Positions 1,217 to 4,094 of a stretch of DNA of 64,000 bases are shown here, piece by piece. The notes beneath the pieces are model-generated. The model was not told where the DNA came from. It searched no databases and saw only the letters and a program-made list of their open reading frames with translations. A program made the translations under genes and the position numbers. Position 1 is the stretch's first letter. Every line of letters begins with the position of its first letter. The DNA comes from Escherichia coli (lineage in GTDB: Bacteria; Pseudomonadota; Gammaproteobacteria; Enterobacterales; Enterobacteriaceae): assembly GCF_003334335.1 (NCBI RefSeq), contig NZ_QOWQ01000016.1; one strand, 5' to 3'.

Positions 1217-4094
1217 ATGGGCATCAAACAACACAATGGGAATACCAAAGCAGATCGTCTCGCTGAATTAAAAATCCGTTCGCCCTCAATTCAACTGATA
1301 AAATTTGGCGCTATTGGTTTGAATGCAATTATCTTTTCCCCCCTGCTGATAGCTGCTGATAGCTGCTGATACAGGAAGTCAATATGGCACCAATATTACT
1401 ATTAATGATGGTGACAGAATTACAGGAGATACCGCCGATCCATCAGGAAACCTCTATGGTGTAATGACCCCAGCAGGAAACACGCCTGGCAATATCAACC
1501 TGGGTAATGATGTCACCGTCAATGTCAACGACGCCTCTGGATATGCAAAAGGAATCATTATTCAGGGCAAAAACAGCTCCCTGACAGCTAACCGACTCAC
1601 AGTAGATGTTGTTGGTCAAACCTCTGCCATCGGCATTAACTTAATTGGTGACTATACCCATGCTGACTTAGGCACAGGCAGCACCATTAAGAGTAACGAT
1701 GACGGCATCATTATTGGGCATAGCTCAACACTAACAGCCACTCAATTCACCATTGAAAACTCGAACGGTATAGGCCTAACCATCAATGACTATGGCACCA
1801 GTGTCGATCTTGGAAGCGGAAGTAAAATCACGACCGATGGAAGTACAGGTGTTTATATCGGTGGTCTCAACGGCAATAACGCCAATGGTGCTGCGCGTTT
1901 TACGGCTACAGACCTGACAATCGATGTTCAGGGCTACAGCGCCATGGGGATAAACGTACAGAAAAACTCTGTTGTCGATCTCGGAACAAACAGTACCATT
2001 AAAACCAATGGCGATAATGCTCACGGCCTCTGGAGCTTTGGCCAGGTTAGCGCGAATGCACTCACTGTTGATGTAACTGGAGCCGCGGCCAATGGCGTCG
2101 AAGTTCGTGGTGGTACAACCACTATCGGTGCAGATAGCCATATTTCTTCCGCGCAGGGCGGTGGCCTCGTCACCAGTGGTTCAGACGCGATAATCAATTT
2201 TACTGGCACGGCAGCGCAACGAAACAGCATCTTTTCCGGCGGTTCTTATGGTGCCTCGGCCCAGACGGCAACGGCTGTTGTCAACATGCAAAATACCGAT
2301 ATTACAGTTGATCGTAATGGCAGTCTGGCGCTGGGTTTGTGGGCTCTCAGCGGCGGTAGAATAACCGGAGACAGTTTGGCTATCACCGGCGCGGCAGGAG
2401 CCAGGGGAATTTATGCCATGACCAACAGCCAGATCGACCTCACGAGCGATCTGGTCATTGATATGAGTACACCCGACCAGATGGCCATCGCAACGCAACA
2501 TGACGATGGTTATGCCGCCAGCCGCATCAACGCCTCGGGTCGTATGCTTATCAACGGTAGCGTTCTTTCCAAAGGTGGGCTAATCAATCTGGATATGCAC
2601 CCTGGGTCGGTTTGGACAGGTTCCTCCCTCAGCGATAATGTCAATGGCGGAAAACTGGACGTTGCAATGAATAACAGCGTCTGGAACGTAACAAGTAATT
2701 CTAATCTCGACACGCTGGCGCTGAGCCATTCAACTGTCGATTTTGCCAGCCACGGGTCAACTGCCGGCACATTTGCCACATTAAACGTAGAGAACCTGAG
2801 CGGTAACAGTACCTTTATTATGCGTGCTGATGTTGTTGGCGAGGGTAATGGCGTTAATAATAAAGGGGATTTATTGAATATCAGCGGGAGTAGTGCTGGT
2901 AATCACGTATTGGCTATCCGCAACCAGGGCAGCGAGGCCACAACGGGAAATGAAGTTCTGACAGTGGTAAAAACCACTGACGGCGCGGCCTCGTTCAGCG
3001 CGTCTTCTCAGGTTGAGTTGGGGGGATATCTGTACGATGTGCGTAAAAATGGCACTAACTGGGAGCTTTACGCTTCCGGGACAGTTCCGGAACCGACTCC
3101 TAATCCTGAACCCACACCAGCTCCCGCTCAGCCTCCCATAGTCAACCCCGATCCTACGCCTGAACCCGCTCCCACGCCTAAACCCACCACGACCGCAGAT
3201 GCTGGCGGCAATTATCTCAATGTCGGTTACTTATTGAACTATGTTGAAAACCGTACGCTGATGCAACGGATGGGTGACCTGCGAAATCAGAGTAAAGACG
3301 GTAATATCTGGTTGCGCAGTTATGGGGGAAGCCTGGACTCCTTTGCCAGTGGCAAACTGAGCGGCTTTGACATGGGTTACAGCGGTATCCAGTTTGGTGG
3401 GGATAAACGTCTCTCTGATGTAATGCCGTTGTATGTCGGTCTGTATATTGGCTCAACACATGCATCGCCGGACTATAGCGGAGGCGACGGTACCGCACGT
3501 TCAGACTACATGGGAATGTACGCCAGTTACATGGCACAAAACGGTTTTTACAGCGATCTCGTTATAAAAGCATCGCGCCAGAAAAATAGTTTCCACATAC
3601 TGGACAGTCAGAACAACGGCGTTAACGCCAACGGCACTGCGAATGGAATGAGCATCTCCCTGGAAGCCGGGCAGAGGTTCAACCTGTCCCCTACTGGTTA
3701 TGGGTTCTATATAGAGCCGCAAACCCAGCTTACATACAGCCACCAGAATGAGATGACTATGAAGGCGAGTAATGGCCTCAATATACATCTGAATCACTAC
3801 GAATCGCTGCTGGGGCGTGCCAGCATGATACTGGGGTATGACATCACCGCAGGCAACAGCCAGCTGAATGTCTATGTGAAGACTGGCGCTATCCGCGAGT
3901 TTTCAGGGGATACCGAATATCTGTTGAACAACTCCCGGGAGAAGTACAGTTTCAAAGGTAATGGCTGGAATAACGGCGTGGGAGTCAGTGCACAGTATAA
4001 CAAACAGCACACATTCTATCTCGAAGCGGATTACACGCAGGGTAACCTCTTTGATCAGAAGCAAGTCAACGGAGGATATCGCTTCAGCTTTTAA
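1217..4094 (+). pseudogene. ycgV: AIDA-type adhesin autotransporter YcgV, split by a +10 bp frameshift in a tandem repeat (possibly phase-variable)
   Basis: ATG at 1217 with AGGAG Shine-Dalgarno at 1207-1211 opens a frame (MGIKQHNGNTKADRLAELKI...) that stops at 1367-1369 inside the repeat. The large ORF 1464..4094 (passenger, Pro-rich linker PEPTPNPEPTPAPAQPP, beta-barrel ending GGYRFSF) is in another frame. Removing one 10-bp unit fuses them into 955 aa, the K-12 YcgV length as I recall it. Confidence 0.7.
1343..1372 (+). repeat. 10-bp direct tandem repeat, 3 units (CTGCTGATAG x2, CTGCTGATAC x1)
   Basis: Read directly from the sequence; unit length is not a multiple of 3 and it sits inside the ycgV 5' coding region. 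Confidence 0.9.

Follow-up and report, generated by a model that had tools for sequence, protein, structure and literature searches.

A third 10-bp repeat unit frameshifts the autotransporter gene ycgV in an Escherichia coli genome

The DNA analysed here, hereafter the window, is a stretch of 64,000 nucleotides from contig NZ_QOWQ01000016.1 of the Escherichia coli assembly GCF_003334335.1. Near its left end lies ycgV, a gene for an autotransporter adhesin whose reading frame is broken by one extra copy of a 10-bp tandem repeat. The gene order ychF-ycgV-dhaR is the same in the window and in E. coli K-12 MG1655, and the gene is orthologous to K-12 ycgV (b1202) by both position and sequence. A Pfam search of the protein obtained after repair of the frame finds Pertactin (PF03212, residues 494-615, E = 1.4e-37) and Autotransporter beta-domain (PF03797, residues 694-935, E = 1.4e-37). 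The repaired protein has the C-terminal beta-barrel and the beta-helical pertactin-like passenger of a type Va autotransporter. The AIDA-I/Ag43-like K-12 YcgV has the same locus, synteny and two domains. Its domains, synteny and near-identity place the window gene in the YcgV autotransporter family. In the literature, YcgV is placed among the biofilm-forming Ag43/AIDA-I-like autotransporter adhesins (PMC9289746).

A hydropathy profile of the repaired protein shows a single N-terminal hydrophobic core at about residues 30-47, followed by AA/D. This hydrophobic stretch is presumably the leader; the SignalP 6.0 probability reported for YcgV is only 0.47 (PMC13101318). Further along the gene, an 18-bp imperfect tandem repeat (CCCGATCCCACGCCTAAA, 2.2 copies) occupies positions 3147-3185, within the linker, rich in Pro and Thr, that joins passenger to barrel. 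The ycgV gene annotated in O157:H7 strain FRIK944 and in a clone with one 10-bp unit, described below, is 2,876 nt long, versus an expected 2,858 nt. An in-frame additional copy of the 18-bp linker repeat would fit these extra 18 nt.

The lesion lies at the end of the leader. Three tandem 10-bp units, CTGCTGATAG at 1343-1352, CTGCTGATAG again at 1353-1362 and CTGCTGATAC at 1363-1372, are detected by Tandem Repeats Finder as a period-10 array at 1343-1371 (2.9 copies, 100% matches, score 58). The window has only three tandem repeats, and this one scores highest. Translation from the ATG at 1217 gives MGIKQHNGNTKADRLAELKIRSPSIQLIKFGAIGLNAIIFSPLLIAADSC, which runs MGIK...SPLLIAADSC and ends after 50 residues at the TGA at 1367-1369, within the third unit. 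In the frame that codes for the passenger and barrel, the last stops fall at 1347-1352; beyond them it stays open to the end of the gene, with its earliest start codon an ATG at 1464 (876 aa). The features of the locus are collected in Table 1.

Table 1. Features of the ycgV locus in the window (positions in the 64,000-nt stretch).
Feature	Position	Strand	Remarks
ycgV pseudogene, type Va autotransporter adhesin	1217-4094	+	broken only by the +10 bp duplication
Shine-Dalgarno AGGAG	1208-1212	+	4 nt before ATG 1217; read off the sequence
Truncated open reading frame, 50 aa	1217-1369	+	N-terminal leader with hydrophobic stretch, then Ser-Cys-stop (translation, hydropathy)
C6 homopolymer	1338-1343	+	abuts the 10-bp repeat; second slippage-prone site (C7 in other genomes)
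Three tandem 10-bp units	1343-1372	+	CTGCTGATAG, CTGCTGATAG, CTGCTGATAC
Passenger and beta-barrel frame	1353-4094	+	+1 relative to the ATG-1217 frame; without N-terminal leader

Deletion of 1343-1352 in silico yields a single open reading frame of 2,868 nt and 955 aa. Its product is identical to K-12 YcgV at 954 of 955 residues, the sole difference being V791I, from nucleotide 3597. The 10-bp duplication is the only lesion of the window gene, which is otherwise one nucleotide apart from K-12 ycgV and intact in frame. In the two-unit state the repeat codes for L43-L44-I45-A46-A47-D48-T49 (LLIAADT), the end of the N-terminal hydrophobic stretch. An exported adhesin would be impossible from the three-unit allele, because its passenger and barrel are left in the +1 frame without a leader, and no start codon precedes 1464. 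No sigma-70-like promoter for this downstream frame was found on the + strand between 900 and 1600.

These results bear out what an earlier note, made from the letters of the window alone, had described: three units in the 5' coding region of ycgV, a Shine-Dalgarno-preceded frame that stops inside the repeat, a 955-aa frame on deletion of one unit, and a gene frameshifted by exactly one extra unit. Every factual statement of that note holds.

The two frames meet in a way that raises the question of recoding. The UGA stop sits at the very point from which a +1 shift would lead into the passenger frame, reading ...AADSC-ADTGSQ..., and a +1 ribosomal frameshift at UGC-UGA (1364-1369) might join leader to passenger and give some full-length YcgV. 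However, the site has neither a slippery P-site codon of the prfB type nor an internal Shine-Dalgarno stimulator upstream, and no hairpin or other structure is predicted for the DNA of the repeat region (z = 0.31), a result that also disfavours a hairpin as a promoter of slippage. The junction of the two frames came about by accident when the unit was duplicated, and few genomes have it; we regard recoding as barely credible.

The unit number of the repeat was surveyed in 5,426 complete E. coli genomes, 4,115 of which are matched by a 601-bp query around the repeat; allele percentages are computed over roughly 4,096 genomes that carry the locus. A 190-nt query sorts the alleles by identity band, and the states were confirmed by direct reading of the sequence in 19 genomes. 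Two units are found in ~4,062 genomes (90-95% identity band, with a 10-nt gap), one unit in 18 (80-90% band; a 40-mer specific for one unit finds the same 18) and three units in 5 (full-length matches at >=99.5%). A further 13 genomes have two units with C7 replacing C6 (181-bp match at 95.3% identity). The bands at >=95% also hold ten records that rank below the matches listed and are presumably partial matches. A 611-nt four-unit query detected no four-unit allele among the 5,426 genomes. The in-frame two-unit state is present in ~99.4% of genomes, and the out-of-frame one- and three-unit alleles together account for 23 of ~4,096 (~0.56%). A variable-gap scan of metagenome contigs gave 31 two-unit alleles and a single one-unit allele, and none of the contigs scanned had three or more units.

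Since precisely two copies are present here in K-12 and in ~4,062 other genomes, the three-unit state is a derived duplication, not a chance repeat, and the two-unit state is ancestral. The earlier note had proposed counting units in reference genes, where intact genes with three units would have spoken against its reading; intact ycgV has two.

The five complete genomes with three units come from different hosts and countries: EC416 (pig, Japan), PEC1009 (wild bird, Pakistan), LR-29-1 (human, Ecuador), EEC_W5 (poultry water, Bangladesh) and PD4 (pig, Cuba). In all five RefSeq genomes ycgV is flagged as a 'frameshifted' pseudogene by the Prokaryotic Genome Annotation Pipeline (PGAP), and the same label stands on every one-unit, three-unit and C7 allele that was fetched. 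The window differs from each of the five by at least 7 single-nucleotide polymorphisms (SNPs) in 21.7 kb, and therefore represents a sixth independent observation of the allele, which speaks against an artefact of assembly. No complete genome of the collection surveyed is identical to the window, the nearest being at least 4 SNPs away in 24.6 kb.

This last point, together with the fact that the window is known from its assembly alone, would suit a third unit that is an artefact of sequencing or assembly, a source of error that the earlier note had allowed for. However, a clean 10-bp tandem duplication is atypical as an error of any platform, the window ycgV shows no other frame disruption, and the identical allele occurs in five independently sequenced and assembled complete genomes from five countries. 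An artefact is accordingly highly unlikely.

How often units were gained or lost can be read from the flanking haplotypes. The window, EC416, PEC1009 and the LR-29-1/EEC_W5 pair all radiate from a K-12-like consensus haplotype, which is present with two units in VG48B2 and NCTC9038. Across 21.7 kb there is no SNP that groups these K-12-like three-unit lineages, and the private SNPs of each three-unit lineage are absent from the two-unit genomes searched. The 60 nearest neighbours of the window all have two units. One SNP of the window is also found in strain S1, yet that strain has an unrelated haplotype. Over the remaining part of the window (21.7-64 kb), comparison with EC416, PEC1009 and LR-29-1 reveals only lineage-specific insertion sequence (IS) deletions and prophages.

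PD4 stands apart from this group. Its three units lie on a haplotype that differs from the other three-unit genomes by ~48 SNPs per 21.7 kb, and SNPs specific to PD4 flank the repeat closely, 136 bp upstream (1207) and ~970 bp downstream (2345). The simplest reading of these flanks is that the PD4 allele would have arisen independently, with a short recombination tract as the alternative. The upstream SNP of PD4 is a T-to-C change one base 5' of the Shine-Dalgarno sequence, which turns TAGGAG into CAGGAG. Taken over all haplotypes, the three-unit allele appears to have had two to five origins, and it is present on at least two haplotypes.

The one-unit allele is distributed in a similar manner. 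It is found on the O157:H7 flank in 7 genomes and in an unrelated, worldwide clone of 11 genomes, and the O157:H7 strain PV15-279 has two units on a flank identical to that of the one-unit O157:H7 genomes. The one-unit allele therefore arose at least twice. Slippage has struck this single 20-bp site on four or more independent occasions, which makes it a genuine indel hotspot. The two-copy tract and the adjoining C6 run form a recurrent, low-rate indel hotspot that both gains and loses units. The slipped-strand origin put forward by the earlier note agrees with these data, as alleles of one, two and three units exist and each minority allele is found on at least two backgrounds.

Once formed, the variant alleles persist. 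When genomes are ranked by their match to the 9.9 kb that flank the repeat in strain 190, the first 11 are precisely the genomes of the one-unit clone, and those ranked next (18347 versus 18353 bits) are outside the 18 one-unit genomes. The allele is therefore the mark of a clone, which spans the USA, Egypt and Switzerland: isolates are known from, among other places, Boston, Baltimore, Houston, Alexandria and Bern, and also from a dog and a pig farm. Similarly, LR-29-1 from Ecuador and EEC_W5 from Bangladesh have seven SNPs and the three-unit allele in common on two continents. The out-of-frame alleles are confined to lineages and stably inherited; taken with the in-frame state of ~99.4% of genomes, this is the opposite of how a contingency locus behaves.

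This comparison bears directly on the possibility that the tract is a contingency locus, in which C6 and the 10-bp repeat would be an evolved, reversible ON/OFF switch operated by slipped-strand mispairing. Several properties of the locus fit such a switch. The unit length is not divisible by 3, and the tract lies near the start of the coding sequence for a surface adhesin; alleles with one, two and three units exist on several backgrounds, albeit in a narrow range; and the remaining ycgV is intact, so that loss of one unit restores the gene exactly. Repeat switches of the known kind are built of numerous units or of long homopolymers, as in the opa genes of Neisseria and the tetranucleotide tracts of Haemophilus. 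By contrast, the functional ycgV allele has only two units and no long hypermutable tract. Frequent alternation is not seen either, as ~99.4% of genomes are ON and the OFF alleles are bound to lineages and inherited. The four-unit allele is absent from the census, and irreversible knockouts by IS1 occur in the same 5' stretch. A literature search found nothing that ties ycgV to repeat variation, frameshift, pseudogene formation or phase variation, the supplement of PMC10117834, which lists an evolved ycgV mutation, lying outside its coverage. Nothing points to a rate of switching, or to selection for it, that would amount to phase variation. We consider the evolved switch very unlikely. We give the same low credence to a related proposal, that the 35 bp at 1338-1372 at the end of the leader serve as a low-frequency reversible ON/OFF element for a normally cryptic adhesin. 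Lacking two defining features, a long hypermutable tract and frequent alternation of states, the ycgV repeat is not a member of the contingency-locus class, and the on/off mechanism that the earlier note had raised is not upheld. Its alternative of a fixed inactivating mutation is the better description.

Lesions of other kinds are found beside the repeat. The change from C6 to C7 is a separate +1 frameshift of ycgV, and two fetched examples are annotated as frameshifted; the genomes with C7 include C10, C11, Res13-Lact-EA06-22, WP5-S17-ESBL-10, WP2-S18-ESBL-07 and STEC1589/1590. In some of them C7 could be an error in sequencing the homopolymer. An IS1 element (IS1A, IS1B or IS1X2 variants) lies within the 601 bp around the start of ycgV in at least 11 complete genomes. 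In strain 21AR0133, whose junction is the only one read, IS1 sits at ~1410, ~40 bp downstream of the repeat. The 5' region of ycgV may be an insertion hotspot for IS1. The gene is occasionally knocked out by several routes, of which the repeat is the easiest.

Such a collection of lesions might suggest that loss of YcgV is positively selected, the repeat being simply the easiest breaking point in a costly or antigenic gene. At least four classes of independent lesion (+10, -10, C6-to-C7 and IS1) fall within the first ~200 bp, and one one-unit clone has spread worldwide. Yet all lesions combined occur in only ~1% of genomes, ~99% keep the 5' stretch free of them, and the sequence is well conserved. 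The clustering at the 5' end is partly due to the survey itself, which used only a 601-bp 5' query. We find selected loss improbable.

All the above lead us to believe, with a probability of about 0.8, that the window carries a recent null allele of the cryptic, poorly expressed adhesin gene ycgV that arose by replication slippage and is precisely revertible in principle, with no sign of switching. The proposed course of events is simple. The two tandem 10-bp copies of wild-type ycgV code for the last residues of the hydrophobic leader. The nascent strand would have mispaired by one unit as the DNA was replicated, whereby two copies became three. The extra 10 bp shifts the frame, and translation from the ATG at 1217 stops after 50 residues. 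Each variant allele would then be inherited as an ordinary mutation within its lineage, and the three-unit allele could revert exactly by loss of one unit. The window gene has the features of a frameshift pseudogene, with a frame broken relative to intact orthologues and no in-frame rescue. It lacks the accumulated disabling mutations of an old pseudogene. As ycgV has no further disabling mutations, the inactivation is recent.

Several observations weigh against this view of a recent null allele. Gains and losses of units on several backgrounds are the raw material of phase variation, and the number of independent three-unit origins is bounded only at 2-5. Without a second lesion the allele may be young or may still be rescuable, and a switch caught in its OFF state would look identical. 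The case is built from assembled genomes.

The (CTGG)3 tract of lacI, reportedly identified by Farabaugh et al. in 1978 as a spontaneous frameshift hotspot in E. coli, offers a close parallel in mechanism. Both are low-copy tandem repeats in coding sequence, where slippage by one unit gives recurrent, precisely revertible frameshifts. The ycgV unit is longer (10 bp) with two ancestral copies, and the evidence for it comes from population genomics, not from a mutation spectrum. The likeness to the CTCTT repeats of Neisseria opa and the Haemophilus tracts lies in a unit that is not a multiple of 3, in the 5' coding position, and in a surface protein whose frame is toggled by unit number. However, the Neisseria and Haemophilus tracts are made of numerous units, differ greatly from strain to strain and even within a strain, and switch fast, whereas the ycgV tract has two units, is ~99.4% monomorphic and is stable. 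The Neisseria autotransporter AutB was among the literature matches on slipped-strand mispairing and phase variation.

In Bordetella pertussis, a C6-to-C7 frameshift in bvgS causes phase variation at a short homopolymer. The C6 run of ycgV likewise shows a C6-to-C7 change, in the 13 genomes counted above, but neither a phenotype nor a reversion is on record for ycgV. A survey related to this type of variation is available (PMC1891110). K-12 YcgV itself differs from the window gene in having two copies of the 10-bp motif versus three, the latter being a frameshifted null. The repeat is undescribed in the literature we found; RefSeq already annotates the allele as frameshifted, and the mutation is of a well-known kind.

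Elsewhere in the window, the match to PEC1009 extends across 36.6 kb, interrupted by 2 gap openings and 5 mismatches. The window ceases to be collinear with PEC1009 and LR-29-1 at ~58339, at the end of potB, and the DNA from 58340 to 64000 is foreign. It contains an open reading frame of 1,341 aa on the minus strand (59279-63304) that matches PHROG 25792, of unknown function. Insertion of a prophage or island at potB/potC probably accounts for the segment at 58340-64000. EC416, which is collinear with the window to ~58373, has a lambdoid prophage at the same potB/potC site. The ymg/ycgZ/ariR/bluF region (equivalent to window ~33-45 kb) is remodelled in different ways among related genomes, with an IS3-associated deletion in EC416 and an IS256/IS903B-associated deletion in LR-29-1. 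In the region compared, none of EC416, PEC1009 and LR-29-1 carries the e14 prophage at icd. The treA gene of EC416 (28704-30400, window ~9.8-11.5 kb) is a pseudogene through a 1-bp deletion at the equivalent of window position 10988, and the window treA is free of this frameshift.

Known phase variation of E. coli adhesins proceeds by DNA inversion or Dam methylation. A switch at ycgV, if true, would add a repeat-based mechanism to the regulation of these adhesins, but the evidence argues against it. For the genome of the window, ycgV is null, and the adhesin repertoire of the strain should exclude YcgV, which is mainly a matter of annotation. More generally, a two-copy 10-bp tandem repeat beside a C6 run provides a natural example of an indel hotspot in E. 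coli, and the recurrent, identical frameshifts that it produces can mislead phylogenetic and association analyses that assume identity by descent.

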